A stretch of 36,660 bases of DNA from an uncultured archaeon (GTDB lineage Archaea > Altiarchaeota > Altiarchaeia > IMC4 > SCGC-AAA252-I15). Location of the stretch: positions 1 through 36,660 of the forward strand of contig CABMCB010000038.1 in the NCBI GenBank assembly GCA_902384455.1. The letters are read 5' to 3'. Positions 11,214 to 36,660 of this stretch are shown here, one piece after another (the first letter of the stretch is position 1; each line of letters starts with the position of its first letter). The notes under the pieces are model-generated. The model saw nothing but the letters and a program-made list of their open reading frames with translations. It ran no database searches and was not told the DNA's origin. The translations under genes were made by a program, and so were the position numbers.

Positions 11214-13498
11214 AATCTCCAAGGTCCTCTGTTACCAAAAACTCTCAATCTCGGGTCTTGCGGCTTCGGCGGGGTAATCTCTACGGCCACCGACGGCTTT
11301 TCTTTCATTGGAAGAAAATCAGAGCCGTGCATGGTGGTCAAACCGTAGCCGGAACCGAACATACGCTCGTGATTGTGTTTTTTAATGTAATCTTTTTCTT
11401 CCTTATCTAGGAGTGTCTTATACTCTTCCGAACCCATAGCATCCTTGATAAGAACCGAGGCCGGAAGACATGTCGCCGCTTGTGCAATGGCATCCGGGAT
11501 GTCGTCTTTACGACCCTTCTTCGTCTCGCCTGTGAAATTTTCAAATTGCTTATACGTCTCATCAATCCACGGGCCGGACACAATATGAAGACGGTCAGCC
11601 TTGAACAACAATTCCAAGGTCTTAACTCGGTTCGCTTTCGCGTTCGGCTCGTTCGACGGCGGTCTTAACTCAACTTTGCTGAGGTCAACGCCGTATCTAA
11701 TTGCGTGAGCGTTCATCGCGGTCTTCAACAAGTCTGCGCCGTTTATCTTCTCGATGATGATTCTCTTTGCTTGAGGATACTTACGAATGAAAAGAACAGC
11801 TTGCAACGCAAGTTCCGACGACCGCCACTTATCAAACTCAATCTCAATCACAACCATTTCAGACGTATTGTCTGGACGACGGTGAATGCGGGATGCCGCT
11901 AAAACAGAAAAATCAGATGTTCTTGAGTCGCTGAATGCAAAATCAAACGTCAGAACGACATCACCCTCTTTCGGGGCTGCGGTCGCCGCGTACGTGTGAG
12001 ATAACAAAAGCTGCCTGTTGAAGTGGCAGATAAAATCCGCCATCTGCTGGGGGTCGGTTGCGATGTTCAAGTACTGATTTTTAAAGCCGCGTTCCTTATA
12101 CTGTCTCAGCTTGGTCTGCAACGCCTTCCAGCCGAGTTTATATGGGAACCACAAATCCACCATGTCTTCGGTTATCTTAAACACGCCGTTCGGGGTATTA
12201 AGCAGCTTTTGAAACTCCGCCTCTCTCCCCGGCTTAGGTGTGTATGCCGAGACGCACACATACTTGAATGGCTCTGGCTCATTACCTTCCTCATCCTTCG
12301 ACATACGAAAGCCGTACCAGTCGTTGGTGAAGTAGCGAGTGCCAATTACGTCTGTGAAACCCCAAGGCTCCACCAACGCTTCCGTGGCCGCAATTTTGTT
12401 TTTCAACGTTTCTCGAAGCTCGTCATCCAATGAGTTCTTATCTTCAACAACGTCGTCCAGCTTACGGATGTCGCAACGAAGGCCAACGTAAGACGAGTCC
12501 ATCGAGGAAATCCACACGTGGTCTTCTTTGGTCTCGTACGTTTTCGCCGGACAAGTAATTGGGCCGGACGAGCGCCCCGCCACACCGGTGAGGATGTATT
12601 CAGGAAACAATTTTTGGAAAGCGGTTGCTTGGCCTCGGGACGGCAAATAGAACTTACGCTTAATCTCGCCCATGAACTTCGACGCAAGATTACGAACCGA
12701 TGTCATAATCATAATGCGAATGTCGGGGACGTTAAGCATCCACTGAATCGCATCCATTCCGTTTATCGTTGACTTAAAACCAGAGCGCGGTGCAAAAAGC
12801 ATCATCGTCTTGGTCGAGATAGTCTCAATTTTCCCGCCGACTTCGACGCGAGTTTCGCGCTTCTGTTCGTTGATAGCCTCTTCCACGTCGCTGCGTAACA
12901 TTCCCGGGAAGAATAGGCCGTCAAAATTCTTTTGCACAAACTGGTCGCAGAGCATCTGGTGTGTGTCGTGAAACATCTGCGTGTTTCCCAACAAGCGGCA
13001 TAACCAGAACAAATCCTTACGGGCTTTGTCGCGAAGGTCAAGCCAGCGGCGGAATGACACAACCTCGTTCACTTCGAACTCTTCGCGGTATTCCTTCTGG
13101 GTCGTTTCAATTTTGACCGGCTTCTCTCCGTCCCATCCGAAGATGGCCGGGATGGTAATCTTCTCAACCGACGGAATCGGCATACGCTGCTTTGGCTTCT
13201 TAGACGCCTCTGCTAGCTCATCCTCTTCGTCGCAGATGACATTAAGCGCACCGCCCTCGTAAATTCCTAACAGGGTAACGAGAGTACGGCACTCGCTCTT
13301 ATAGAACTTTCCGGTAGCGTCAAGCGCGACTGCCCACGACAAATCTTCCCTGTGGCGGGCGTCCCGTACTGCGGCTTGCTCTTCACTAGCGGCAACGGAT
13401 GCTAAACTCGGATAAGGTTCCGGCAAACCGTTATCGCGGGCGCGTTGATTCGCTTTACGACGACGGGCTCTTTCCTTTTGTGAGAGTTCTTTTGCCAT
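11210..13498 (-). CDS. terL: Terminase large subunit
   Basis: Walker A-like APRSGFKST, Walker B-like IRKLDDVVE, VIGTRY coupling motif, nuclease acidic motifs TFDFA/SDFS/KDDIPDA. Confidence 0.92.
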   Translation of the reverse strand: MAKELSQKERARRRKANQRARDNGLPEPYPSLASVAASEEQAAVRDARHREDLSWAVALDATGKFYKSECRTLVTLLGIYEGGALNVICDEEDELAEASKKPKQRMPIPSVEKITIPAIFGWDGEKPVKIETTQKEYREEFEVNEVVSFRRWLDLRDKARKDLFWLCRLLGNTQMFHDTHQMLCDQFVQKNFDGLFFPGMLRSDVEEAINEQKRETRVEVGGKIETISTKTMMLFAPRSGFKSTINGMDAIQWMLNVPDIRIMIMTSVRNLASKFMGEIKRKFYLPSRGQATAFQKLFPEYILTGVAGRSSGPITCPAKTYETKEDHVWISSMDSSYVGLRCDIRKLDDVVEDKNSLDDELRETLKNKIAATEALVEPWGFTDVIGTRYFTNDWYGFRMSKDEEGNEPEPFKYVCVSAYTPKPGREAEFQKLLNTPNGVFKITEDMVDLWFPYKLGWKALQTKLRQYKERGFKNQYLNIATDPQQMADFICHFNRQLLLSHTYAATAAPKEGDVVLTFDFAFSDSRTSDFSVLAASRIHRRPDNTSEMVVIEIEFDKWRSSELALQAVLFIRKYPQAKRIIIEKINGADLLKTAMNAHAIRYGVDLSKVELRPPSNEPNAKANRVKTLELLFKADRLHIVSGPWIDETYKQFENFTGETKKGRKDDIPDAIAQAATCLPASVLIKDAMGSEEYKTLLDKEEKDYIKKHNHERMFGSGYGLTTMHGSDFLPMKEKPSVAVEITPPKPQDPRLRVFGNRGPWRL

Positions 13499-18855: not shown

Positions 18856-18929
18856 TGGTTCCGGCGGCTCGACTCGAACGAACATGACGGGTTTCAGAGA
18901 CCCGCATCCTACCATTGGATGACATCGGA
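18856..18929 (-). tRNA. tRNA-Gln(CTG)
   Basis: CGGGT-CTCTGAA-ACCCG, TTCGAGT loop, CCA. Confidence 0.88.
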
Positions 18930-19047
18930 ACAGAAATGTTGGAAACGGTCATTCGACGAGGAGCGCGTCCGTGCTCCACTTTAGTGCTGGGCCGAACACC
19001 ATCGCCGTTTCCTGTCATGGTGTATGTACGGCATCGAATATGAAAAT

Positions 19048-19082
19048 TGGTTGGGGCGCGTGGACTCGAACCACGATTATCC
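19048..19082 (-). pseudogene. Orphan tRNA 3' half
   Basis: CGTGG-TTCGAGT-CCACG-CGCCCCA-ACCA directly after the HNH stop, with no 5' half. Confidence 0.7.
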
Positions 19083-19448
19083 CCTGCGACTGAATGTTCT
19101 CTCGCGATGACAGTTAGCGCAAACAACGTCGCACTTTTCTGATTCTTCTTTAATCGACTCAAAACTTCTCAGATGACAAGTCGAACAAGACAACTCAAAC
19201 TTTTTCTTTCCTCGGACATGGTCAAAGTCCATAACATACCAAGGATACTCCGCACCGCAATCAGCGCACGGTTTTGATTTCAAACTTTTAACAAAGTCTC
19301 TTATACCTTTTCTTCGGCGGTCTCTAGACTCGTTGGTGCTACTCGGGTGTGTCTTGTAATAACTTTTCTGATACTCGTTATGACACGACGCGCATTTACT
19401 GCTGTATGGAAGGCGCTCAGTCTCTTGACACGTGCTGCATGGTTTCAT
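19077..19448 (-). CDS. HNH endonuclease (family B)
   Basis: CADCG...MDFDHVRG...CDVVCANCH. Confidence 0.85.
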   Translation of the reverse strand: MKPCSTCQETERLPYSSKCASCHNEYQKSYYKTHPSSTNESRDRRRKGIRDFVKSLKSKPCADCGAEYPWYVMDFDHVRGKKKFELSCSTCHLRSFESIKEESEKCDVVCANCHRERTFSRRG

Positions 19449-19524
19449 TTTACTCTCCTATAAGGGCGGCAGGGAGAGTATAGGCTCTCCCCGCCTAGTT
19501 CGGGTTATAAAGCCGAACTTAAAC

Positions 19525-19599
19525 TGGTTGGGCAAGAACGATTCGAACGTTCATCGAGCGGATTCAAAGTCCGACGTGTTACCGTTACACTATCGCCCA
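19525..19599 (-). tRNA. tRNA-Gln(TTG)
   Basis: CGGA-CTTTGAA-TCCG, CCA. Confidence 0.88.
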
Positions 19600-19608
19600 A
19601 CAGAAAAT

Positions 19609-19721
19609 TGGTCCCCGCCGTCGAATCGAGTAATGTACGCCTGTCGTTTCAAGACAGCGCTCTACCGGCGAACTAGCGATGGATGGAGGAACGCCGCATC
19701 CTACCATTGGACGACATCCCA
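19609..19721 (-). pseudogene. Composite degenerate tRNA fragments (Gln-like 5' half, CCTCCA end, decayed GAA tRNA)
   Basis: TGGGATGTCGTCCAATGGTAGGATG, then CTGTC-TTGAAAC-GACAG and a terminal ACCA; T arm disrupted. Confidence 0.55.
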
Positions 19722-19730
19722 ACAGAAATT

Positions 19731-19949
19731 TTACTGCGGCAGAGGAGACTTTTGGAGATACCCGGCCACGAAAATTACGCCGGATGCCGCCGCCCCAACC
19801 GCCGTGATATATAATACGTGATGAAAACCCAATCCCGGCTTTAAGTTAAACGACTCAGGAGAAATTCCAATAGCCGCGAAAGCGTTTATCACACCACCGG
19901 CCATTCCTGAAATCGCGGAGGCTAGCAATCCCTTTGTCCACTTATTCAT
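19731..19949 (-). CDS. Small membrane protein, holin-like
   Basis: Two TM-like segments, C-terminal YLQKSPLP. Confidence 0.6.
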   Translation of the reverse strand: MNKWTKGLLASAISGMAGGVINAFAAIGISPESFNLKPGLGFHHVLYITAVGAAASGVIFVAGYLQKSPLPQ

Positions 19950-20302
19950 GATAGCAGATTCACCGGTGGCAAGCCTAAATCGGCTCGCTCTAAATTTACA
20001 ATCTTCATCGCCCGGGCTAGGTCACCTGCTTCCGCTTTCAGTCCGTGAAGAGACTGAACAGCGTCGAGCCACCAGCACATGAATTGAGCGAATTTACGCC
20101 ACGCAAACCACTCATATCCCTTGGAACGAAACCAGCGACTACTTCTCGCGGACATTGTCTCGTCGAGGTTGCCGTAAGTCAAGACGTTCAGAAACTGGTC
20201 AAGACCGCACAACACGCGCTGCACATAGTTATGTGTTAACGCCTTTTGTCCCCACGCAATCACTTGAGGTTGGTCAGGATTCGAGAGCGGTGTTAAGCCC
20301 AT
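19946..20302 (-). CDS. Hypothetical phage protein (DQxxN...DETxSAR motif)
   Basis: 118-aa ORF coupled to the downstream membrane protein. Confidence 0.65.
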   Translation of the reverse strand: MGLTPLSNPDQPQVIAWGQKALTHNYVQRVLCGLDQFLNVLTYGNLDETMSARSSRWFRSKGYEWFAWRKFAQFMCWWLDAVQSLHGLKAEAGDLARAMKIVNLERADLGLPPVNLLS

Positions 20303-20307
20303 AAAAT

Positions 20308-20381
20308 TGGTCCTTCCCCACCGAGTCGAGCGGTGACGGCCTGTGTTTCAAACAGGAATGCAACCCCTACATCAAAGAAGG
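20308..20381 (-). tRNA. tRNA-Phe(GAA), atypical
   Basis: CCTGT-TTGAAAC-ACAGG; T loop CTCGACT; CCA. Confidence 0.7.
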
Positions 20382-20382
20382 A

Positions 20383-20469
20383 TGGAGGAAGAGAACTGAG
20401 TTGAACAGTCACCCCTTTCAGGATGGCACGGTGTTCGAAACCGTTTGCAGACCGTCTGCGCTGTCTTCC
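20383..20469 (-). tRNA. tRNA-Ser(CGA), atypical (Sec/allo-tRNA-like fold)
   Basis: ACGGT-TTCGAAC-ACCGT, long variable arm, compact D arm GCAG-ACGGT-CTGC, CCA. Confidence 0.7.
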
Positions 20470-20933
20470 GAAACTTTACCTCTGATACGGTCTTTATATT
20501 CTTTCTCGTGTTCTTTACAATCGCGACGAAGACCGTTCCAGTTACTTGCGTTTTTAGAAAATTTCTCAGCGGGGAGAAACTTCTTATGCGAACGACACCG
20601 TGCCGCTCCTTGCGGCGGTGTGATGCGCTTAATATCAGGCTTGCCCGTTTGTGGGCGTCTGGCCGCCGCACAGTTACATGAAAGGTGCGAAAAAGCGACG
20701 TTGCTTAAATCCCAGAATAACGAAACATCCACATTTTCCCACGGCTCTTTGTGCTCGATGCTTAATTTGTCTGCTGATTCAATCTCTAACTCACAACGAT
20801 AGCAAACATTTTCATCGTGACGTTTAAGCACATCAAATAGAACCAGTTTTCTGAGTCTGTTTGCGGCGGTGCCTCTCGGCATACCGAGCTGGACGGACAT
20901 ATTTCTGTGTCTGTCTATTTCGTGTTTCTTCAT
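20418..20933 (-). CDS. HNH endonuclease (family A)
   Basis: LGMPRGTAANRLRK...CYRC...LSIEHKEPW...NVAFSHLSCN. Confidence 0.82.
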   Translation of the reverse strand: MKKHEIDRHRNMSVQLGMPRGTAANRLRKLVLFDVLKRHDENVCYRCELEIESADKLSIEHKEPWENVDVSLFWDLSNVAFSHLSCNCAAARRPQTGKPDIKRITPPQGAARCRSHKKFLPAEKFSKNASNWNGLRRDCKEHEKEYKDRIRGKVSEDSADGLQTVSNTVPS

Positions 20934-20975
20934 GAGCCGTCCTTTGGGCCTACAGCCTCTGACGCGCCTTAAAAT

Positions 20976-21063
20976 TGGAGGATAAAGTAGGATTCGAACC
21001 CACGAAACCTTTCGGTTTACTCGTTTTCAAGACGAGGGCAATAATCCGCTCTGCCATTTATCC
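20976..21063 (-). tRNA. tRNA-Ser(TGA)
   Basis: CTCGT-CTTGAAA-ACGAG, long variable arm, CCA. Confidence 0.92.
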
Positions 21064-21107
21064 TTTGAAGATTGGCGGAAGCTGCTGGGTGCCGCTGCCT
21101 TCCGTAA

Positions 21108-22007
21108 TTATATAACCGTTAAAGCGTACGTGACGCTGTATGTCGGCGAATTAGCAGTAGCAATCGTTATCGTTATCGCCGAGCTAGCGACCACGTTCAA
21201 AAGAAAATCAAAAGTCGATGCGGTTGCTGTCGTAGCTACTGAGAACGTAGCCGATGTCTGGGTCGTGGCTCCAACAGGGCTCGTATAACCAGCCGTCACC
21301 GTTACTGTTCCGCCAGCGTTCGCTTGCGTCGCTTTCACAGAACCTTCGAAGCGATAACGTCCCGCTCCCGCATAACCGGACGCATTGGTATTCAAAATTG
21401 TGATAGGACCCACATTACCGGTTATGGTGCTGCCACCGGCTACTATCGTCCCTTGAAGACCACCGACTGCGAACGTTTGCCCGCCGTATCTAGTTACTAG
21501 TCCGGTGTTGGGAGAAAATCTCGTGGAGATGGCCAGCGGGCGTCCGTTGACCGTACTCGGAGGAATGCAGGTTTCCCCTGTGGTGTAGTCTGTCGTGATG
21601 CCGCCACCCGCCGAGCCGTATATCGAAACATGACCGTCAACATCTAATGTCAAGCTAGACGACAAAACGCCGAGTGAGTATGTGTCCCAGTGAAACTCTC
21701 CGTCGGTATTTTCATAGCCCACGGTGTATGTGTTCGATGGAGCAGAAGCGTTTTGAAAATACAAACATCCGGCTGCTGTTCCGTCCGCACGAACGAATTT
21801 ATAAACGCCGTTCTGTGTGCCGGGTAAAAAATTAAACGTTGTGCCGGGACCGCCGGTTGGAATAATGCCTGCCGCAAGACCACCTTGTAGTTGGGCATTA
21901 GCGTCAATCCAACCTACTACTGCGCCGCCCTCGGCCTGAATTTGTAACACGTCTTGGCCTGTTGTTTGCCACACCGATGCCGGGTTCTTTGATGGCGCTG
22001 TAGTCAT
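21108..22007 (-). CDS. Putative fibre/virion surface protein inside the tRNA array
   Basis: Thr/Gly-rich; N-terminus similar to that of the 2137 ORF. Confidence 0.65.
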   Translation of the reverse strand: MTTAPSKNPASVWQTTGQDVLQIQAEGGAVVGWIDANAQLQGGLAAGIIPTGGPGTTFNFLPGTQNGVYKFVRADGTAAGCLYFQNASAPSNTYTVGYENTDGEFHWDTYSLGVLSSSLTLDVDGHVSIYGSAGGGITTDYTTGETCIPPSTVNGRPLAISTRFSPNTGLVTRYGGQTFAVGGLQGTIVAGGSTITGNVGPITILNTNASGYAGAGRYRFEGSVKATQANAGGTVTVTAGYTSPVGATTQTSATFSVATTATASTFDFLLNVVASSAITITIATANSPTYSVTYALTVI

Positions 22008-22094
22008 AAACCACACCTAATCTGTTCTTAACCGCTACTTAAGTCCGGCGGCTCGGACACTCTGTGTTACCTCTCAGGGCATTTGTATTAAACT

Positions 22095-22184
22095 TGGCGG
22101 AGGATGCAGGATTTGAACCTGCACAACCTTTCGGTTGGCTGCCGCTTAGCAAGCGGACACAATGCCGGGTTCTGTCAACCCTCC
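22095..22184 (-). tRNA. tRNA-Ser(GCT)
   Basis: CCGC-TTGCTAA-GCGG, long variable arm, GCCA. Confidence 0.9.
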
Positions 22185-22192
22185 GCATAAAT

Positions 22193-22266
22193 TGGCAGGA
22201 CGCGGAGGAATCGAACCCCCACCACTCGATTTGGAGGCGAGCAGACTACCACTATCCTAGCGACCT
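22193..22266 (-). tRNA. tRNA-Trp(CCA)
   Basis: Loop CTCCAAA, GCCA end. Confidence 0.88.
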
Positions 22267-22276
22267 GTAGAAACTT

Positions 22277-22408
22277 ATCGACCGCATTCACCGTGATGAC
22301 GCCCCCGAGTTTTCGAGACTCGGTGCGGGAGTCGAACCCGCTGTTGTCGATTTCGTCGGACGCGTGGCTAGCCGTGTCATAGCCCTTTGGACTCGCGTTG
22401 ACCGATGA
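22277..22408 (-). ncRNA. Circularly permuted tRNA-like RNA (YrlA-like topology)
   Basis: Order is T arm GCGGG-TTCGACT-CCCGC, loop-closed acceptor-like stem CCGAGT/ACTCGG, D-like arm; closed by ATCGAC/GTCGAT. Confidence 0.65.
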
Positions 22409-22412
22409 AGAT

Positions 22413-22500
22413 TGGTGCGTTGACAAGGACTCGAACCTTGGAAGTCCACAAGGGACAGTTGGTTTACAGCCAACGGCAATTGCCGCTATGCGACCAACGC
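22413..22500 (-). tRNA. tRNA-Tyr(GTA)
   Basis: GTTGG-CTGTAAA-CCAAC, long variable arm, CCA. Confidence 0.92.
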
Positions 22501-22509
22501 ACTGAAACT

Positions 22510-22583
22510 TGGAGCGGTGTGCGATAATCGAAATCGCGCCCGTGCCTTGGCAAGGCACCGTTCTACCACTAAACTAACGCCGC
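22510..22583 (-). tRNA. tRNA-Gly(GCC)
   Basis: GTGCC-TTGCCAA-GGCAC, TCCA. Confidence 0.9.
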
Positions 22584-22591
22584 TCAGAACT

Positions 22592-22665
22592 TGGAGCCAA
22601 ACGTGTAAATTGAACACGCCCTTGCGGTTTACGAAACCGCTGTCATACCACTAGACCATCAGGGC
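22592..22665 (-). tRNA. tRNA-Thr(CGT), mispaired acceptor and T stems (possible pseudogene)
   Basis: GCGGT-TTCGTAA-ACCGC; 3' part nearly identical to the 22887 copy. Confidence 0.6.
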
Positions 22666-22874
22666 TTATTAACGCCCGCCGGATTGACCGTGTGCTGCAA
22701 TCTTCCGATAACCTTGTTGAACATGGAGTCGCGCCTATCCTCGACGTCCGGGCTCGTATATCCTTCCGGCACCCGGCTGCCAAAACTTTTTGGCTCGTCG
22801 ATGCCCTCAATGACAATACGACTTTTATTCCTAGCATCGTATGCCTGTTTGTATGACGGCTTTTCGTTTGGCAT
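22659..22874 (-). CDS. Small hypothetical protein
   Basis: GAGG RBS; lies between the two Thr(CGT) copies. Confidence 0.55.
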   Translation of the reverse strand: MPNEKPSYKQAYDARNKSRIVIEGIDEPKSFGSRVPEGYTSPDVEDRRDSMFNKVIGRLQHTVNPAGVNKP

Positions 22875-22886
22875 ATAACCTCAAAA

Positions 22887-22960
22887 TGGAGCCAAACGCG
22901 TGAATTGAACACGCCCTTGCGGTTTACGAAACCGCCGTCCTACCGCTAGACGAGTAAGGC
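22887..22960 (-). tRNA. tRNA-Thr(CGT)
   Basis: Same anticodon arm; two U.U mismatches in the acceptor stem. Confidence 0.7.
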
Positions 22961-23394
22961 TTAGACTCAAAATATCTTTCTTTATAGAGTTTCATCTGTT
23001 GACGGCAAGACTTTCTTAGCCCATTCCATCTGGCTGCGTCTTTGCTAAAATCGCTTTCAGGATGAAACCTCTTACAAGAAGTACACCAAGACAGCCCCTG
23101 CTCTCCGATAATACGCTTGGGTTCGCCACCGCGTCTTATGTGGGGCACATTACACTTCGTGTGGGAAAATGCGATGTTCTCCAAATCCCAGAATAGTGAC
23201 GTCTCTCGATTCTCCCACGGCTGTTTATGCTCGATGCTCAAATCGTCGTCTGTTTCGACCGCGCTTCCACACTTAAAACAAACGTTTTCTTTTAATCGAA
23301 CAAGCAGACTAAACAGAATCTTCTTGCGAAGTTTTCCTGCTGCTGCTCCGTGGGACATACCTAGTTGTTGCGCGATTCGTTCACTTCTACTCAT
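22924..23394 (-). CDS. HNH endonuclease (family A)
   Basis: LGMSHGAAAGKLRK...CFKC...LSIEHKQPW...NIAFSHTKCN. Confidence 0.82.
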   Translation of the reverse strand: MSRSERIAQQLGMSHGAAAGKLRKKILFSLLVRLKENVCFKCGSAVETDDDLSIEHKQPWENRETSLFWDLENIAFSHTKCNVPHIRRGGEPKRIIGEQGLSWCTSCKRFHPESDFSKDAARWNGLRKSCRQQMKLYKERYFESKPYSSSGRTAVS

Positions 23395-23437
23395 AGCCGT
23401 TGTCTTCCTTGGACGTTAGCACATGAATTTGAAAAAT

Positions 23438-23511
23438 TGGAGCCGCGTGTCCGAATCGAGCGGACGCCCGAGAGGTACAAGCTCTCTGTTCTACCATTAA
23501 ACTAACCCGGC
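23438..23511 (-). tRNA. tRNA-Thr(TGT)
   Basis: GAGAG-CTTGTAC-CTCTC; T loop CTCGATT. Confidence 0.85.
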
Positions 23512-23520
23512 TAAAAGTAT

Positions 23521-23612
23521 TAGGCTCACTCACCCGCCGTTGCTAGCCGGGCGGGGCTTCGGTGAACATGCGCCCCAGCCTAGCCGCTGAGATGTTCTCT
23601 CCGTAGAGCCTA
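23521..23612 (-). ncRNA. Unassigned structured RNA
   Basis: Closing stem TAGGCTC/GAGCCTA, three internal hairpins, loop complementarity GAACAT/ATGTTC. Confidence 0.5.
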
Positions 23613-23616
23613 AAAT

Positions 23617-23691
23617 TGGTGGACAAGGGCGGTTATGCTCCGCCGACCTTCGGGTGCAGGCCGAAAATTTTCCTAATTAAACTACTCGCCC
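23617..23691 (-). tRNA. tRNA-Ala(TGC), atypical
   Basis: G3.U70 pair; TTCGG-CCTGCAC-CCGAA; T loop AGCATAA. Confidence 0.75.
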
Positions 23692-23988
23692 AAAATGAAA
23701 TTTACGATGACAGTTAGCACAAAGGATTTCGCACTTTGCTATTTCCTCTTTGATGCGCTCCAATCCAAAACCTCTGGCTGCCATTATACCCAACACTTCA
23801 AACTTCTGTGAAGGGTCTTTATGGTGAAAATCCAAACAGCAGGGTGTTGACTCTCCGCACTTACACGGGTGAGTAGCCTTGTATTCTTGCACAAATACTC
23901 GGTTCCTCAACTTACGGGATTTCTTATCTGCTATTCTTGCTACTCTATTCTTTATATAATGCTTTCTGCTGTTTTCCGATTGACTCAT
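23677..23988 (-). CDS. HNH endonuclease (family B)
   Basis: CKCGE...LDFHHKDP...CEILCANCH. Confidence 0.85.
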   Translation of the reverse strand: MSQSENSRKHYIKNRVARIADKKSRKLRNRVFVQEYKATHPCKCGESTPCCLDFHHKDPSQKFEVLGIMAARGFGLERIKEEIAKCEILCANCHRKFHFGRVV

Positions 23989-24064
23989 ATTCCCTCCAAG
24001 GAGGGCTATTAAGTAAAACGGGAGTGTGGTCCACCACTCGGTTTATGTCCGAGAACTCAAAATC

Positions 24065-24164
24065 TTTGAAGTCATTCACACGTTACCTTTCACGCTACGT
24101 GTGCTTGCCAGATGTCGGATGCGAAGGTGAAAGTGTTCGCGCTTCCGTGAATGGTGACTTCAAA
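24065..24164 (-). ncRNA. Unassigned rod-shaped RNA
   Basis: TTTGAAGT/ACTTCAAA, CATTCAC/GTGAATG, CTTTCAC/GTGAAAG nested helices. Confidence 0.5.
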
Positions 24165-24166
24165 CT

Positions 24167-24241
24167 TGGTAGCCAATCAGGGACTCGAACCCGTGATTTC
24201 ACGTTAATCAGACGTGCGTCCTGCCATTGGACGAATCGGCT
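24167..24241 (-). tRNA. tRNA-Ile(GAT)
   Basis: CACGT-CTGATTA-ACGTG (T37), CCA. Confidence 0.85.
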
Positions 24242-24308
24242 CTTGATAACACCGGAGTCCGCTTTACGAAAGCGGCATCATAACCACTAATTCAACAAGG
24301 CTTAAAAC

Positions 24309-24382
24309 TGGAGCGGCGTCACGGACTCGAACCGAGACGAAGAGTTTGGAAAACTCCAATGCTACCATTACATCAACACCGC
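24309..24382 (-). tRNA. tRNA-Gly(TCC)
   Basis: GGAGT-TTTCCAA-ACTCT, TCCA. Confidence 0.9.
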
Positions 24383-24389
24383 TCAAAAT

Positions 24390-24462
24390 TGGTTCAGGAG
24401 GTGCGAGTTGAGCGCACGGAGGTCGGCTTATGAGACCGACTTGAATACCCATTCTCCCCTGA
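24390..24462 (-). tRNA. tRNA with CAT anticodon (Met/fMet/Ile2 unresolved), atypical
   Basis: GTCGGT-CTCATAA-GCCGAC, very short D arm, T loop CTCAACT, CCA. Confidence 0.7.
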
Positions 24463-24934
24463 ATTGAAACTCAATAATTCGATGACAGTTCGAACAAAGC
24501 AAATCACACTTCGCTATCTCCTCCAAGAGACGCTCCCTTCCGAATCGAAAAGAGCCTTGTCCGATGTTGAATGTTTTCTCTTTTCTATCTCGATGATGCC
24601 AATCAAGAGCGAACGGCGGATAAACAATTCCACATCTCTTGCACGGCTTGCCCTCCTTAAAAGAGTTAAGCCACTGCCTGCGTCGTGCGACGCAAGCCTT
24701 CATGTGTGAAAATGCGATGTTATCCAAATCCCAAAACAGTTCAGCCGAGATACCTTCCCACGGCTTAATATGCTCAACACTGAGTTCTTCTACGGTTTCA
24801 ATTTCTAATCCGCATCGAACACAGATGTTTTCTTTATGTTTCTTTAATTGCTGAAACAACAATATCTTTCGTAATCTGTGTGACGCCGTGCCGATAGGCA
24901 TTCCTAACGTCTCTATGCCTTTTCTATTTGACAT
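24428..24934 (-). CDS. Chimeric double HNH endonuclease (family A N-half, family B C-half)
   Basis: LSVEHIKPW...NIAFSHMKAC followed by CKRCG...LDWHHRD...CSNCH. Confidence 0.8.
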   Translation of the reverse strand: MSNRKGIETLGMPIGTASHRLRKILLFQQLKKHKENICVRCGLEIETVEELSVEHIKPWEGISAELFWDLDNIAFSHMKACVARRRQWLNSFKEGKPCKRCGIVYPPFALDWHHRDRKEKTFNIGQGSFRFGRERLLEEIAKCDLLCSNCHRIIEFQFRGEWVFKSVS

Positions 24935-24971
24935 ACCCTTTGCTCCTTGAGCGTTGAGTAAGATTTAAACT

Positions 24972-25047
24972 TGGTACCCCGTAAGTGAATCGAACACTTC
25001 CTGTCTGGGTGTAGGCCAGATGCATACGACCAGTTTGCTAACAGGGT
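24972..25047 (-). tRNA. tRNA-Val(TAC)
   Basis: TCTGG-CCTACAC-CCAGA (C33), CCA. Confidence 0.82.
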
Positions 25048-25056
25048 ACAGAAAAT

Positions 25057-25131
25057 TGGTGGGCCGCCAGAGGCTCGAACTCTGACTAAAGGCTTAAAAG
25101 GCCCCGCTGCTGCCACTCGCATTCGCAGCCC
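25057..25131 (-). tRNA. tRNA-Lys(TTT)
   Basis: GGGGC-CTTTTAA-GCCTT, CCA. Confidence 0.85.
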
Positions 25132-25140
25132 ACATAAAAT

Positions 25141-25216
25141 TGGTCGTCCGCCTCGGGCTCGAACCGAGACCTTGTCCGTTAAGAGCGGAAAATTCTGCCT
25201 CTCGAAATCGCAGACG
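25141..25216 (-). tRNA. tRNA-Lys(CTT)
   Basis: TCCG-CTCTTAA-CGGA, CCA. Confidence 0.85.
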
Positions 25217-25224
25217 ACATAAAA

Positions 25225-25560
25225 TTTGCTTCGACTATAGCCCGGGTTTTGTCATACGCCTTGCGACGCGAGACAGTCATTCCTCTAAGCCCCCACCCGA
25301 CCTTCGACGTCTTCGACTTGACTCAGGTCCTACTTGGGGTTGCATCCATGTGGAGTTCGCTGACTCGAATGACGCAATCTACGTAAATGTTTACGCGAAT
25401 TGCGTATCAGCCCTTACCCGAACGGTTACCCGCCCCGCAACTTCCACGGCATGTTGTCGATGATGGCCGGAACTTCCTCCCTGCTCACGGCACAGGTTGA
25501 ACTCTTCCTCTCGGGGAGTCAACATACTCCGTGAACACAGCGACTGTCCGTCGAACCAAA
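25225..25560 (-). ncRNA. rnpB: RNase P RNA, divergent and reduced
   Basis: P1 TTTGGTTCGAC/GTCGAAGCAAA, P2 GACAGTC/GACTGTC, CR-I GAGGAAGTTCCGG (25479-25467), AACTCCAC...GCAA, CR-IV TAGAGGAATGACTGTC, CR-V ACAAAACCCGGGCTATA (25252-25236). Confidence 0.88.
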
Positions 25561-25649
25561 ATACGAAGAAGGCTTTCGTTGCCTTCATAAAACGCTAGGG
25601 ATTCTCGTTATGGCCTAGTCCGGTTCAGTTGGATGAACCGACAAGAACT

Positions 25650-25723
25650 TGGAGCACGCGGCTGGAATCGAACCAGCGATGACTGTTTTGCAGACAGTTA
25701 GCTTTCCACTTGCCTACACGCGC
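25650..25723 (-). tRNA. tRNA-Cys(GCA)
   Basis: ACTGT-CTGCAAA-ACAGT, U73, CCA. Confidence 0.92.
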
Positions 25724-25728
25724 AAACT

Positions 25729-25816
25729 TGGTGCGTCACCCCGGATTCGAACCGGGACGGGTTTTACCCCAGCCGGGTTTGAGCCGACCGCGTCTGCCAG
25801 TTCCAGCCAGCAACGC
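25729..25816 (-). tRNA. tRNA-Leu(CAA)
   Basis: GTCGG-CTCAAAC-CCGGC, long variable arm. Confidence 0.9.
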
Positions 25817-25824
25817 ACGAAACT

Positions 25825-25899
25825 TGGAACACCTCGTCGGACTCGAACCGACATGACGAGCTTAGGAAGCTCGCGTCCTCTCCATTGAACGAGAGGTGT
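25825..25899 (-). tRNA. tRNA-Arg(CCT)
   Basis: CGAGC-TTCCTAA-GCTCG. Confidence 0.92.
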
Positions 25900-25903
25900 A
25901 AAT

Positions 25904-25978
25904 TGGGGCACCCACTCGGACTCGAACCGAGATTGACGCGTTCGAAGCGCGTTGTCCTGTCCATTGAACGACAGGTGC
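25904..25978 (-). tRNA. tRNA-Arg(TCG)
   Basis: ACGCG-CTTCGAA-CGCGT. Confidence 0.92.
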
Positions 25979-25983
25979 AAAAC

Positions 25984-26058
25984 TGGTGTTCCATGTGGGA
26001 GTCGAACCCACATCCGAGGTTTCGTAGACCTCTATCCTATCCATTGAACGAACGGAAC
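25984..26058 (-). tRNA. tRNA-Arg(ACG)
   Basis: GAGGT-CTACGAA-ACCTC. Confidence 0.92.
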
Positions 26059-26143
26059 ACTAAAACCATCGACGCGCTCTTCGTGTTGCTGTTTCGCGCC
26101 GAACGACCCTCAAATGCAGCTCCAAAGAGGAGAGTCGTAAACT

Positions 26144-26234
26144 TGGATTCGTCTCAGGTTCGCTGGTTCAACGTGTTGGCCGCTAAGCCGAATACCCTGA
26201 TTCACGTTCCTACTTTCCAGCGGGAACGGACGAA
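26144..26234 (-). ncRNA. Unassigned pseudoknotted RNA ending in TCCA
   Basis: TTCGTC/GACGAA closing stem plus TCCA; CGTTCC/GGAACG; TCAGG/CCTGA; pseudoknot CGCTGG/CCAGCG. Confidence 0.55.
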
Positions 26235-26237
26235 GAT

Positions 26238-26312
26238 TGGAGGCCCCAGAGGGAATCGAACCCTCATTCTGCGCTTAGAAGGCGCGTGTCCTGTCCATTG
26301 AACGACAGAGCC
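26238..26312 (-). tRNA. tRNA-Arg(TCT)
   Basis: GCGC-CTTCTAA-GCGC. Confidence 0.92.
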
Positions 26313-26317
26313 AAGCT

Positions 26318-26404
26318 TGGTGCCCCGCGAGAGACTCGAACTCCCACGACCTTCCGGCCACCTGTTTCTAAGACAGGCATGTCTGCCAATTCCATCAGCA
26401 GGGC
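26318..26404 (-). tRNA. tRNA-Leu(TAG)
   Basis: CCTGT-CTTAGAA-ACAGG, long variable arm. Confidence 0.92.
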
Positions 26405-26412
26405 AAATAAAA

Positions 26413-26652
26413 TTATCTAATCGCGTGCCAAGCACGCTTAATATTTTTCACGGTCAATTCGAGTTTATAGTTTTCAAGATATTCCCGAACCCGCCGCCCA
26501 TTTGCTGTACTCGGGCGGTAGCATGGATTCAAAGCCATAAACTCTTCCGCTATTTTTATTCCTTCTCTAAACTCGGTGCCCTGTAAAAGACTCGAACTCC
26601 CCGCGTCTTCCGGCAATCTATTTCTAGAACTGGCGTTTGAGTTCAAAGTCAT
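26413..26652 (-). CDS. Small ORF or gene fragment similar to an internal segment of the scaffold protein
   Basis: EFREGIKIAEEF...YRPSTANGRRVREYLENYKLELTVKNIKRAW versus scaffold EYAEGQVITAKF...YNPCQANYEALVEYLTTNQMDFTLDNLEAAF; start uncertain. Confidence 0.5.
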   Translation of the reverse strand: MTLNSNASSRNRLPEDAGSSSLLQGTEFREGIKIAEEFMALNPCYRPSTANGRRVREYLENYKLELTVKNIKRAWHAIR

Positions 26653-26708
26653 AACCTCTTTCGGACGACGATTCTAAGGCAGTAGCGTATGCATTCTGCC
26701 GCTCGGGA
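26574..26708 (-). pseudogene. Degenerate tRNA-Leu(TAG) remnants
   Basis: GCCGGAAG...GGGAGTTCGAGTCT...GGGCACC resembles the 3' half of 26318-26404; a second decayed CTTAGAA arm lies upstream. Confidence 0.6.
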
Positions 26709-26717
26709 ATTTAAACT

Positions 26718-26803
26718 TGGTGCGCTAGGTCGGAGTCGAACCGACAATCACTTCCGGGCCGGGGGTTTTAAGTCCCCTGCGTATGCCATTCCGCCACACG
26801 CGC
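26718..26803 (-). tRNA. tRNA-Leu(TAA)
   Basis: GGGG-A-CTTAAAA-C-CCCC, long variable arm, CCA. Confidence 0.9.
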
Positions 26804-26815
26804 ACTGAATAACTT

Positions 26816-26923
26816 GACCGCCGTGCTACCGCTACACCACCGCTCGTCGCATCCTTGCCGTATACACGGCTGACTCAAGAATGCACTATAGAGCAACTGG
26901 GATTCGAACCCAGACTTGCAGTC
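26816..26923 (-). ncRNA. Circularly permuted tRNA-like RNA (YrlA-like topology)
   Basis: GACTGC, T arm CTGGG-TTCGAAT-CCCAG, TTGCTC-[hairpin insert]-GAGCGG, D arm TGGTGTAGCGGTAGCAC, GCGGTC. Confidence 0.72.
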
Positions 26924-26942
26924 CTACCTGCCCGCCGATGTT

Positions 26943-27299
26943 TCATGCGGGACTTAATCTTTCTTCTTCCTCTCTGTGGCAATTAGCACACAAGAGAATG
27001 CACTTCTTAGCTTCAAACCAAAAGGCTTCCCAGTTATAAAATCTAAAGTCGTGGACATCTCGAATTTTATTTTCTGGCTCTGTGTGATGAAATTCCAGAG
27101 CACCTAAACATCTCGAATATCCACATCGGGAGCATTTCCCGCCCAACAACTTCACTGCCTTTTTCTTCTGTTCTCTGGCTCTGTTTTTAACGTAAAGTTT
27201 CAAACAGCCCTTACACAGAGTCATCAGTTTAGAGCCGCGAGACGACTTATAAAAATCTTCTTCCAGCTTCTCTAAATCACATTTAATACACTTTCTCAT
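26943..27299 (-). CDS. HNH endonuclease (family B)
   Basis: GGKCSRCGY...LEFHHTEP...CILLCANCH. Confidence 0.87.
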   Translation of the reverse strand: MRKCIKCDLEKLEEDFYKSSRGSKLMTLCKGCLKLYVKNRAREQKKKAVKLLGGKCSRCGYSRCLGALEFHHTEPENKIRDVHDFRFYNWEAFWFEAKKCILLCANCHREEEERLSPA

Positions 27300-27361
27300 T
27301 TCACTCTCCCTAAAGAGTGGGAAGGGGTGTTAGGGCACCCCTTTCCTTGTAGCTACAATTT

Positions 27362-27620
27362 CCGGGCGGTATTTATCAACGCGCCCCGCCGTGGCGCTTA
27401 GAGCGTCTTAAAGACGCCGAGACGGCTTAGCCCTTACCAGCATGCGAGCCCGAAGTACGGGAGCTACCCGACGACGTTTGCGTCTCTGTTGCAACATCTT
27501 TGCTAAGAGCCAACCAACTTCAAGAACTTCTCAAGGCCCAGCTTCTCAAACAATACCTTCGCTGTTAGGACGACCCGCCAGGTCCTTTGTGGAGAACACC
27601 CGAACGGCTCCACGAACTTA
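27362..27620 (-). ncRNA. Unassigned pseudoknot-rich RNA
   Basis: Helices GTGGAG/CTCCAC, AGGAC/GTCCT, TTAGC/GCTAA crossing GAGACG/CGTCTC, and an H-type knot GCGCC/GGCGC with GGCGG/CCGCC. Confidence 0.5.
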
Positions 27621-27631
27621 TACTTAAAAAC

Positions 27632-27710
27632 TGGTCGGAGAACTCGGATTCGAACCGAGGTGCTTCCGCTTCCAAAGCGGACGAGATAAGCCAAACTCCT
27701 CTACTCTCCG
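27632..27710 (-). tRNA. tRNA-Pro(TGG)
   Basis: TCCGC-TTTGGAA-GCGGA. Confidence 0.92.
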
Positions 27711-27719
27711 AAGCAAACT

Positions 27720-27793
27720 TGGCTCACCCTGCTGGAATCGAACCAACATCATCCGGTTAACAGCCGGACGCTCTACCACTGAGCTAAAGGCGA
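27720..27793 (-). tRNA. tRNA-Asn(GTT)
   Basis: TCCGG-CTGTTAA-CCGGA, GCCA. Confidence 0.92.
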
Positions 27794-27802
27794 ACTGAAA
27801 AT

Positions 27803-27877
27803 TGGCTCCATCCCCACGATTCGAACGTGGACCTTACCGAGTAACAGTCGGGCGTCATACCGTTAGACCAGAATGGA
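27803..27877 (-). tRNA. tRNA-Asn(GTT), second divergent copy
   Basis: CCGA-CTGTTAC-TCGG, GCCA. Confidence 0.88.
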
Positions 27878-27884
27878 ACTGAAC

Positions 27885-28262
27885 TCAATGACCTGTGCGC
27901 TCATATTTTTCTCTTCGCTTATCAGCGGTGTATGCGTCTCGCATGTACTGAGCGGTTCGGTCTCTTCTAATCGTGACTGCTTGTTCAGGTGTGTACTTCC
28001 TAAACTGGCGGTCTGGCCTATTGCAGTTGAGGTGCGAGAACGCTATATTCTCGATGTCCCAAAACAATTCAGCCGAAATTCCTTCCCAAGGCTTTTTGTG
28101 TTCTATACTTAAATCTTCAACAGCCTCAATAATTCCTTGACACTTGAAGCAAGTGTTCTCATTTAACTTCTTCAATAAATGGAACAAAACAATCTTTCTT
28201 AATCTATTCGACGCCGTGCCGTGAGGCATACCAAGCGTAGCAGATTTCTTCTCATTACTCAT
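27885..28262 (-). CDS. HNH endonuclease (family A)
   Basis: LGMPHGTASNRLRK...CFKC...LSIEHKKPW...NIAFSHLNCN. Confidence 0.82.
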   Translation of the reverse strand: MSNEKKSATLGMPHGTASNRLRKIVLFHLLKKLNENTCFKCQGIIEAVEDLSIEHKKPWEGISAELFWDIENIAFSHLNCNRPDRQFRKYTPEQAVTIRRDRTAQYMRDAYTADKRREKYERTGH

Positions 28263-28301
28263 AAATCTCCCGACCCAGCGGGTCTTTGATTTATTTCAAA
28301 T

Positions 28302-28380
28302 TGGTCGAGGAAGCTGGATTTGAACCAGCGGTCTCTTCTTTCCGAAAGAAGCGGGGACAACCAAGCTCCCCTACTCCTCG
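28302..28380 (-). tRNA. tRNA-Pro(CGG)
   Basis: CTTCT-TTCGGAA-AGAAG. Confidence 0.92.
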
Positions 28381-28389
28381 ACTGAAAAA

Positions 28390-28467
28390 TGGCGGAATGG
28401 GCGGGATTCGAACCCACGGTGGTCTCCCGTGACAGGGGAGTGCGATTGGCCTCTACGCGACCACTCC
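28390..28467 (-). tRNA. tRNA-Asp(GTC)
   Basis: CTCCC-CTGTCAC-GGGAG, GCCA. Confidence 0.92.
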
Positions 28468-28494
28468 GTAAAACTCTTAAACTCTACTGAAACC

Positions 28495-28523
28495 AGTGTA
28501 CCAAAACTTCTAATCTTTGTCAA
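28495..28523 (-). promoter_or_regulatory. Sigma70-type promoter for the tRNA array
   Basis: TTGACA-17 bp-TACACT followed by GGTTTC. Confidence 0.8.
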
Positions 28524-28554
28524 GCACTATTTCAAACTTTCTTTCACGACTTTT

Positions 28555-28630
28555 TGGGGTAAGTGTCGGGACTCGAACCCGAACCCAGAGATTCACAGTC
28601 TCTGATGCTAGCCTTTACAACACAGATACC
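28555..28630 (-). tRNA. tRNA-His(GTG)
   Basis: CAGAGA-CTGTGAA-TCTCTG; G-1:C73; followed by a T run. Confidence 0.88.
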
Positions 28631-36381: not shown

Positions 36382-36660
36382 ATGAAAATCATTAACAGAT
36401 TTACCGGGCTGATAATTTATAAAGACGAAGCAGCGTCTTTAAAAAATTCGGTAGAGCAGGCTGTTATAGCTGGAAAATCTCTCGTATGCTCCGACCTCGG
36501 AGGAGCCAACCTCAGAGGAGCCAACCTCGGAGGAGCCGACCTCGGAGGAGCCAACCTCGGAGGAGCCAACCTCGTAGGAGCCAACCTCGGAGGAGCCAAC
36601 CTCGTAGGAGCCAACCTCAGAGAAGCCAACCTCAGAGGAGCCAACCTCGGAGGAGCCCAC
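36382..36660 (+). CDS. Pentapeptide repeat protein (truncated by window end)
   Basis: AGGAG RBS; MKIINRFTG... followed by tandem A(N/D)LxG pentapeptides encoded by 15-bp repeats. Confidence 0.88.

Follow-up and report, generated by a model that had tools for sequence, protein, structure and literature searches.

The window analysed here comprises all 36,660 nucleotides (nt) of contig CABMCB010000038.1, deposited with an archaeal genome assembly (GCA_902384455.1). On its minus strand it carries at 25226-25559 a gene of 334 nt for an RNase P RNA, running from the 5' strand to the 3' strand of helix P1. As far as sequence can tell, this element is a real, conserved, phage-encoded and minimised RNase P RNA. 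Homology, phage context, a conserved position and compensatory covariation of the core were all observed. We regard it as probable that the element is a genuine, selected rnpB-like gene of a tailed phage of about 100 kb, that it represents a reduced bacterial type A RNA, and that it supplies the catalytic subunit with which the phage cuts its own 30-tRNA transcripts. A role in the 5' maturation of phage tRNAs is likely.

First, the region 25130-25730 was searched with Rfam cmscan in E-value mode. The bacterial type A model RF00010 (RNaseP_bact_a) was found at 25222-25559 (-) with 95.0 bits and an E-value of 1.1e-29, covering model positions 1-367 of 367. With this E-value homology to RF00010 is beyond doubt. 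The curated gathering score of the model is 100 bits, and as the window RNA stays 5 bits below it, a default Rfam scan showed tRNAs only. With the archaeal model RF00373 the same RNA obtained 32.3 bits at a cutoff of 84, compared to 95 bits with the bacterial type A model. The initial annotation of this stretch, made by eye, had proposed Rfam model searches and covariation among related phages as checks; the former gave this end-to-end match, and the latter revealed changes on both sides in 32 of 61 pairs among 14 RNAs. Its suggestion that P4 resembles archaeal RNAs did not hold, given the two model scores and the canonical bacterial P4 (AAAGUC/CUU) of two relatives, G024 and G026. Five bacterial genomes were considered as candidate donors. 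Four of them (two Acidobacteriota, one Verrucomicrobia, one Paludibacteraceae) contain canonical RNAs of 157-252 bits with a canonical P4 and a P8 different from that of the phage family; in the fifth, a Planctomycetota genome, no RF00010 match was found. Because of the low archaeal score and these features of the four bacterial RNAs, the family is, by its sequence relationships, not an archaeal form but a branch of bacterial type A, derived and reduced. As annotated, the gene lies between tRNA-Cys and tRNA-Lys genes on the same strand. ARAGORN placed tRNA-Cys(GCA) at 25650-25723 (-), 90 nt upstream, and tRNA-Lys(CTT) at 25141-25216 (-), immediately downstream. The 9-nt spacer to the latter, AUUUUAUGU (25217-25225, -), is the same as that between two tRNA-Lys genes. 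A hidden protein gene was not detected in the 14 RNAs: no open reading frame (ORF) is conserved, and the longest stop-free stretches, of 46-106 codons, lie in different frames.

The structure was derived from the Rfam alignment of the window RNA and by inspection, and was compared over 14 distinct family RNAs, 56-89% identical and aligned with MAFFT. All strands named here are on the minus strand. The 5' strand of P1, UUGGUUCGAC (25550-25559), pairs with GUCGAAGCAA at 25226-25235 in 9 of 10 positions, the tenth being a G-G mismatch, and the P2 5' strand GACAGUC (25542-25548) forms 7 pairs with 25272-25278. P3 (25479-25540) is enlarged to 62 nt, in a family range of 10-62 nt by per-sequence folds; its 5 basal pairs covary. 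J3/4 and the 5' strand of P4, GAGGAAGUUCCGGC with a bulged U, occupy 25466-25479. The P4 pseudoknot has 8 pairs; its 3' strand CCCGGGCU and the motif ACAAAA occupy 25239-25252, and 13 of the 14 family members have ACAGAA in place of this motif. P5 is CAUC/GAUG. A second pseudoknot, P6, consists of 5 pairs between its 5' strand UCGAC (25456-25460) and a stretch of the P17 loop, GUCGA (25313-25317). The P15-P16-P17 arm (25290-25339) contains the L15 internal loop with an invariant CGGGU on its 3' side (GGGUG at 25294-25298). Directly after P15 follows the strand CUUAGAGGAAUG (25278-25289), and the P18 slot is empty according to the Rfam model and folds, holding 1 nt compared to 26 nt in the model. 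A P19-like hairpin with a GCAA loop (25256-25269), found by folding, is shared by 8 of the 14 RNAs. The initial annotation had listed P1, P2, P3, P4, P5, P6 (UCGAC/GUCGA), P15/16 and P19 and had noted the absence of P18, all of which agrees with this structure.

It had failed to find P8 and P9. Both are present and were found by the RF00010 model: P8 as the hairpin CCGUGGAAGUUGCGG (25435-25449), which is invariant in the family and served as the signature for finding relatives, and P9 as a hairpin of 5 pairs with a GUAA loop of the GNRA type (25420-25434). The P10/P11 stem (25352-25419), defined by the Rfam model and folds, surrounds the P12 hairpin (25372-25405) and encloses a conserved unpaired strand, CAUUCGAG (25364-25371; family consensus CAUUCRAG). 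P13/P14 are missing from it; the slot for P12-P14 has 49 nt instead of the 77 nt of the model and forms P12 only. The specificity domain (S-domain), earlier described as cut to a few helices, keeps P7-P12; P13/P14 and the J11/12 columns with the ACAGARA strand are deleted. Across the family, the type A core and the cruciform helices P1-P3, P5 and P7-P11 are present. P4 with its bulged U lies between the GAGGAA and ACAGAA strands (ACAAAA in the window), the P6 pseudoknot connects J5/7 to the P17 loop, and L15 carries GGU. P13/P14 and the J11/12 module are lost, and P18 is absent in 13 of 14, with a short hairpin only in G003/G001. P12 ranges from about 85 nt to absent, the latter in two of the 14 (G016 and C59, a second phage-like contig of the same assembly), and the size of the RNA goes down to about 265-300 nt.

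Using this alignment, 96.7% of 846 cells in 61 pairs were found paired for the 14 RNAs, compared to 80.5% in shuffles, none of which (0 of 500) reached the observed value. With partners slid by -3 to +3 positions the values were 34.7-38.3%. The slid-partner control is the fairer test because the structure was written from one member. Changes on both sides occurred in 32 of the 61 pairs, the P4 and P6 pseudoknots among them. The individual helices were also scored in a set of 38 RNAs, consisting of the 14 and 24 further distinct metagenome RNAs. P2 (7 pairs, 3 with double changes) was 100% paired in the 14 RNAs and in 266 of 266 cells of the larger set, P9 (5 pairs, 3 with double changes) 100% and in 190 of 190, and P15 (4 pairs, 3 with double changes) 100% and in 149 of 149. 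For P4 (8 pairs, 4 with double changes) 99.1% and 302 of 304 cells were obtained, for P6 (5 pairs, 4 with double changes) 95.7% and 183 of 189. Distal P11 was 100% paired in the 14 RNAs, with double changes in 5 pairs. The 79.6% observed for P1 is an under-count, as MAFFT shifts the P1 3' strand in some rows. P4 itself occurs as AAGUUC/GGCU in most members, as the canonical bacterial AAAGUC/CUU in G024 and G026 and as AACUUC/GGGU in one; in all of them the U is bulged after a spacing of three pairs. P6 is UCGAC/GUCGA in the window and UCAAC/GUUGA in most members. Without a supplied structure, RNAalifold recovered P2, P3, P9, P11, the base of P12, P15, P16 and P17, with 26 of 59 pairs double-changed. 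Invariant in the 14 RNAs were GAGGAA and UC..GG of J3/4-P4, P8, the GGGUAAG side of P10/11, GCAA of J5/15, AAUAGG and CGGGU as the two sides of L15, AGA.GAAUG and ACA.AA. A disrupted P4 or L15 was seen in none of the 38 RNAs. The relatives and their covariation support a real RNase P RNA homologue that structural selection maintains throughout a family of phages.

Relatives were identified with an 18-mer from P8. In IMG/VR it occurred in 16 contigs, 15 of which gave an RF00010 match, the exception being a 6-kb fragment; by record set, matches were found in 3 of 15 IMG/VR records in one search and in 12 of 13 in another. Scores of the relatives ranged from 65.9 to 102.6 bits, with more than 100 bits in 4 of 15 IMG/VR records. 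Three near-complete genomes carry the RNA: G018 (105,066 bases, direct terminal repeats, CheckV 100%), G025 (100,420 bases) and G026 (101,668 bases). In the IMG/VR records G001 and G003, whose large terminases (TerL) are 49% identical to that of the window, the RNA lies about 11-12 kb from TerL, the same as in the window. Among metagenome contigs of the JGI at least 119 matches to the 18-mer were obtained, and 80 loci were fetched. Using nhmmer, the RNA was found in 37 of these 80, with all tRNAs on the strand of the RNA; the other 43 had 0-1 tRNA and no RNA. A co-oriented tRNA array surrounds the RNA at every locus, namely 14 IMG/VR and metagenome-assembled genome (MAG) loci and the 37 metagenome loci. 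The flanking tRNAs are mostly Cys-[P RNA]-Lys, with Leu-[P]-Lys, Arg-[P]-Ser and Arg-[P]-Arg as further arrangements. In several relatives a tRNA lies within 2-9 nt of the RNA, and the spacer to the upstream tRNA can be as short as 2 nt or exceed 1000 nt. At three relatives' loci (L043, L045, L046; 1299-1596, -) ARAGORN reported a tmRNA whose span takes in two tRNA-Lys genes together with the RNase P RNA in its 3' part, a call that is almost certainly false. A 16-mer from P4 was tried as an alternative probe and rejected: its matches were mostly due to chance, with the RNA in 1 of 12 contigs. Among 185,579 GTDB species genomes the P8 18-mer had 55 matches, none with a phage-type RNA by nhmmer, and no bacterial donor lineage was found from these matches. 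Cultured phages in INPHARED yielded no match to the RNA region or to 20 kb of the window (blastn, megablast). The nearest cultured TerL relative, Tunturiibacter phage Tunturi_3 (26.6% identity), had no RF00010 match.

The phage nature of the contig, already assumed in the initial annotation, is borne out by a portal gene (SU10_portal, phrog_1216; 9096-11222, -), a large terminase gene (Terminase_6C, phrog_38; 11210-13498, -) and HNH endonuclease genes between the tRNAs. Portal and large terminase, together with the direct terminal repeats of the relative G018, mark a tailed phage (Caudoviricetes). A trypsin-like protease and a LAGLIDADG ORF are also encoded. The co-oriented array extends over 18856-28629 (-) and is interrupted by HNH endonuclease ORFs. 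ARAGORN found 30 tRNA genes in it and Rfam at gathering 26, compared to the 33 counted earlier by eye. All 30 encode CCA. The T loop is UUCRANY in 28 and CUCGA in 2, so the earlier impression of many non-canonical T loops was mistaken, and the idea that the reduced S-domain suits odd T loops finds no support. U stands at position -1 in 19 of the 30, and gaps between tRNAs are often 4-9 nt. The absence of an RnpA gene noted earlier was upheld by Pfam: PF00825 was found in none of five records (G000, the assembly of the window including its phage contigs, and four near-complete relatives). As a positive control, it was detected in 10 of 14 named genomes. When 105 C59 ORFs and 62 ORFs of C10, the contig taken as the continuation of the window, were scanned with Pfam, an RNase P protein was likewise not found.

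We infer co-transcription of the RNA with the array, partnership with RnpA and catalysis on tRNA precursors. The RNA, whose spacer pattern is like that of a tRNA, would be transcribed together with the tRNA genes and freed through processing of its neighbours. It may then join the RnpA protein of the host and cut the 5' leaders of the densely packed phage precursors at each +1 position. GGU of L15 pairs with the 3'-CCA of tRNAs in type A RNAs; in the phage, the encoded 3'-CCA would dock on the conserved GGU while the P4 core catalyses. With spacers of 4-9 nt, one such cut would also make the short 3' trailer of the tRNA upstream.

Several observations weigh against this reading. The window RNA does not reach the RF00010 gathering threshold of 100 bits with its 95.0 bits. 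Its P4 has a C-C mismatch at the last pair, seen in 1 of 38 RNAs, P1 and P3 are also mismatched, and it has ACAAAA (6 of 38 RNAs) where 31 of 38 have ACAGAA. The shuffle control leaves the relatedness of the sequences uncorrected, which the slid-partner control corrects. A scan of the array for promoters and terminators was no richer than shuffles (11 versus 9.0 and 15 versus 14.3), and transcription units of the array were for this reason not defined. Finally, the J11/12 module, P13/P14 and P18 are missing from the window RNA. These parts are used by bacterial type A RNAs for reading the T loop and for fold stability, and efficient tRNA recognition is therefore not guaranteed.

An active ribozyme might serve another purpose, with phage mRNAs or tRNA-like structures instead of tRNA 5' leaders as its main substrates, or as a regulator of array expression. 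Bacterial RNase P is generally known to cleave non-tRNA substrates too, and the reduced S-domain could loosen the dependence on the T loop. The location of the gene inside a co-oriented tRNA array at all 14 IMG/VR and MAG loci and the 37 metagenome loci speaks for tRNA substrates, as does the invariance of the CCA-docking GGU in phages whose tRNAs all encode CCA, and we rate this alternative as improbable. A non-catalytic decoy or sponge, in which an RnpA-binding core titrates the RNase P protein of the host or another factor with no tRNA processing, appears quite improbable. It would agree with the missing rnpA (PF00825 in 0 of 5 phage records) and with a strongly reduced S-domain; such a reduction could impair the reading of substrates yet leave protein binding by the catalytic domain intact. 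Against it, CGGGU of L15 (beside 30 of 30 CCA-encoding tRNAs) and GCAA of J5/15 are invariant, and P4 with its bulged U as well as P8, P9, P10 and P11 are invariant or covary. These elements serve docking and catalysis and are not needed for protein binding, and a phage with 30 tRNAs needs more 5' processing, not less.

The archaeal origin of the assembly raises a further alternative, in which the contig belongs to an archaeal genome or its virus and the RNA serves the archaeal cell. The window corresponds to the entire contig C38 of G000, a MAG of 2.41 Mb in 103 contigs. This MAG is archaeal, since contig C2 holds the end of an archaeal large subunit ribosomal RNA and an archaeal-type RNase P RNA (RNaseP_arch, RF00373; 71.6 bits). 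The tetranucleotide profile of C38 is not an outlier, at rank 69 of 103, and four further phage-like contigs are in the same bin. We nevertheless consider this setting very improbable. The tRNA-Tyr of both C38 and C59 combines G1-C72 with a long variable arm, and these are bacterial identity elements. The phage tRNAs all encode CCA, while most tRNA genes of the MAG itself do not, and the RNA is of bacterial type A. C10 encodes a Glyco_hydro_108 domain and a DPBB lytic-transglycosylase-type domain, C59 encodes PG_binding_3 and GroES/Cpn10. Comparing the phage contigs with the remaining contigs of the bin revealed no CRISPR spacer-like matches. Among 30 related archaeal genomes, 4 gave an RF00010 match at E <= 0.001 and none a phage-type RNA; three of the four matches are weak (28-36 bits) and are archaeal RNase P RNAs. 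The fourth, in a related archaeal MAG with 6% contamination, is a canonical bacterial RNase P RNA of 260.6 bits on a 2-kb contig (G033:C270:674-1053), which is probably bacterial contamination. From their tRNA features and gene content the phage contigs were almost certainly mis-binned into the archaeal MAG; their binning is explained by a tetranucleotide profile within the range of the bin. The gene content of C10 and C59 points to a bacterial host, and from these predicted genes we concluded that its cells contain peptidoglycan. Genome catalogues are affected as well, as the RNase P RNA match and the dozens of tRNAs in this archaeal MAG would stem from mis-binned phage DNA. That the RNA is a decaying passenger, a host rnpB fragment acquired with tRNA genes and drifting without function, is hardly credible: at 55-69% identity to the others, the window copy diverges most within the set, lies below the Rfam cutoff and has a few mismatches, but pairing is 93-100% in P2, P4, P5, P6, P7, P9, P11 and P15 of the 38 distinct RNAs with many double changes, the array position is kept across phages with TerL only 49% identical, and the RNA is retained in three near-complete genomes.

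Further observations concern the phage-like contigs of the bin, which amount to about 323 kb (C38, C10, C59, C4 and C68). C38 at its 3' end and C10 at its start have a 30-nt overlap within a 15-nt tandem repeat; the window ends in this repeat (36530-36660; GGAGCCAACCTCGGA-like) and C10 begins in it, which probably caused the assembly break. C38 and C10 together would comprise 94.3 kb. The last 8 nt of C10 equal the first 8 nt of C38, hinting at a possible circular or terminally redundant genome of 94.3 kb. C59 (99,937 bases) has 34 tRNAs and an RF00010 match of its own (G000:C59:51264-51553). This match was examined as a candidate rnpB of the host and rejected, C59 being a second phage-like contig with 34 tRNAs. 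C4 (69,214 bases) has 25 tRNAs and no RF00010 match, and at its start there is a 127-nt overlap with the end of C68. The portal DNA of C38 (9195-10937) is 69% identical to that of C59, while the large terminases (C38 11210-13498) are 29% identical as proteins, a pattern that indicates, as far as such identities go, mosaic exchange within the phage family.

Within the tRNA array of the window, HNH endonucleases made up 8 of 10 ORFs scanned. At least 8 HNH homing-endonuclease ORFs lie among the tRNA genes at 19077-28262 (-), for example at 24428-24934, 23677-23988, 22924-23394 and 26943-27299. They fill several large gaps of the array, and compared to relatives tRNAs for Glu, Ala, Met and Ile(TAT) are missing. 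CCA is nearly always followed by A(G/U)UUU, with AGTTT at 9, ATTTT at 6 and GTTTT at 3 of the 30 genes, and many spacers are exactly 9 nt long and end in GT. At 28523-28495 (-) the array also contains a promoter-like sequence, TTGACA-17-TACACT with a TG extension. Between tRNA-Cys and the RNase P RNA, two hairpins can form in the 90-nt spacer (25560-25649, -): GGUUCAUCCAACUGAACC, and GAAGGC-loop-GCCUUC with a U-rich run behind it. A hairpin upstream of the RNA lies at 25568-25586. In relatives (L020, L021, L041 and others) and in C59 (54671-54758 and 58021-58109) tRNAs of 88-91 nt with long variable arms were observed. ARAGORN labelled these unusual class-II-like tRNAs as Asn(GTT), Ile(TAT) and Met(CAT), in C59 also as Phe(AAA).

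To look beyond the family, an 18-mer of the canonical P4 was used. It occurred in 20 IMG/VR contigs, 16 of which carry RF00010 RNAs of 108-328 bits. In seven of them (L248, L250, L252, L254, L256, L262, L263; 30.9-463 kb), viral by IMG/VR label, the RNA is embedded in a co-oriented tRNA array whose gaps measure 0-82 nt, and in L247 a single tRNA is located 65 nt from it. The canonical RNAs of these eight loci reached 108-300 bits. By nhmmer, L248 and L254 are the closest to the family of the window. PF00825 was not found in five of these IMG/VR records. Searches of large IMG/VR contigs with Pfam Terminase_6C/Terminase_6N gave one weak match in a set of 15 records and none in a set of five, so that the viral nature of these contigs rests on the IMG/VR labels; a few ORFs beside the RNase P RNA look phage-like. 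Virus-borne RNase P RNA may be more general than the phage family described here. As a tentative and rather doubtful extension, virus-borne RNase P ribozymes might form a widespread overlooked class, in which a near-minimal RNA (about 265-300 nt, with P13/P14 and P18 missing and in some members P12 too) captures RnpA of the host to give a chimeric holoenzyme tuned to CCA-encoding arrays. If so, the phage would not depend on host RNase P for its tRNA supply while it takes over the cell, and might even compete with it.

RNase P RNA counts as a hallmark of the genomes of cells and organelles. A full-text literature search outside subscription journals turned up no account of an RNase P RNA encoded by a phage, and the term RNase P was absent from several papers on tRNA clusters and arrays, one of which includes virus genomes. 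A phage family with its own RNase P RNA under structural selection widens the viral translation cargo from tRNAs and tmRNA to a tRNA-maturing ribozyme. It also offers a natural deletion series: P3 and P19 vary, P12 and P18 are present or not, P13/P14 are absent, and the P4 sequence is shifted with its geometry unchanged. The series bears on the old question of how far a bacterial RNase P RNA can shrink before tRNA recognition is lost.

Among known systems compared with the phage RNA, the bacterial type A (RF00010, E. coli M1 type) agrees with it in how P1-P12 and P15-P17 are ordered and paired, in having P4 and P6 as pseudoknots and a bulged U, and in the strands GAGGAA.., GCAA, AAUAGG/CGGGU, AGA.GAAUG and ACAGAA. 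The phage RNA differs in being virus-encoded within a tRNA array, in lacking P13/P14 and the J11/12 ACAGARA strand throughout, P18 in 13 of 14 and P12 in 2 of 14 members, in a P4 that is mostly AAGUUC/GGCU and not AAAGUC/CUU, and in having an invariant P8 of its own and a conserved CAUUCRAG strand. Its RF00010 scores are 66-103 bits, those of the RNAs of the four bacterial genomes 157-252. Archaeal RNase P RNAs (RF00373, including the minimal Thermoproteaceae type) have small size and S-domain losses in common with it; the phage RNA, at 32.3 bits on a cutoff of 84, possesses L15 with GGU and P8. The rnpB of mitochondria and plastids is likewise a reduced bacterial-type RNA on a small non-cellular genome beside tRNA genes, with the protein encoded elsewhere. 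It descends from an endosymbiont and not from viral capture. Plastid RNase P RNAs are reported to be functionally defective alone (PMC4264200). The RNase P RNAs of candidate phyla radiation (CPR) bacteria fall below Rfam thresholds and lack P13, P14 and P18; a few are without P12, a loss called highly unusual (PMC8172020). They resemble the phage family in sub-threshold scores, loss of P13/P14/P18 and occasional loss of P12. They are, however, chromosomal and cellular, and about two thirds are without the CCA-binding motif (PMC8172020); the phage RNAs keep it invariantly. A full Rfam scan of two megaphage genomes is described there as yielding tRNAs and a tmRNA only (PMC8172020). Theta ribozymes, which are similar to the ribozyme of hepatitis delta virus, adjoin phage tRNAs and are proposed to free the phage from tRNA-processing enzymes of the host (PMC10879173). 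Like the phage RNase P RNA they are phage-encoded ribozymes among phage tRNA genes. They are small and self-cleaving, come from gut phages and are proposed to remove 3' trailers (PMC10879173), whereas the RNA described here is a homologue of the trans-acting RNase P and would act on 5' leaders.

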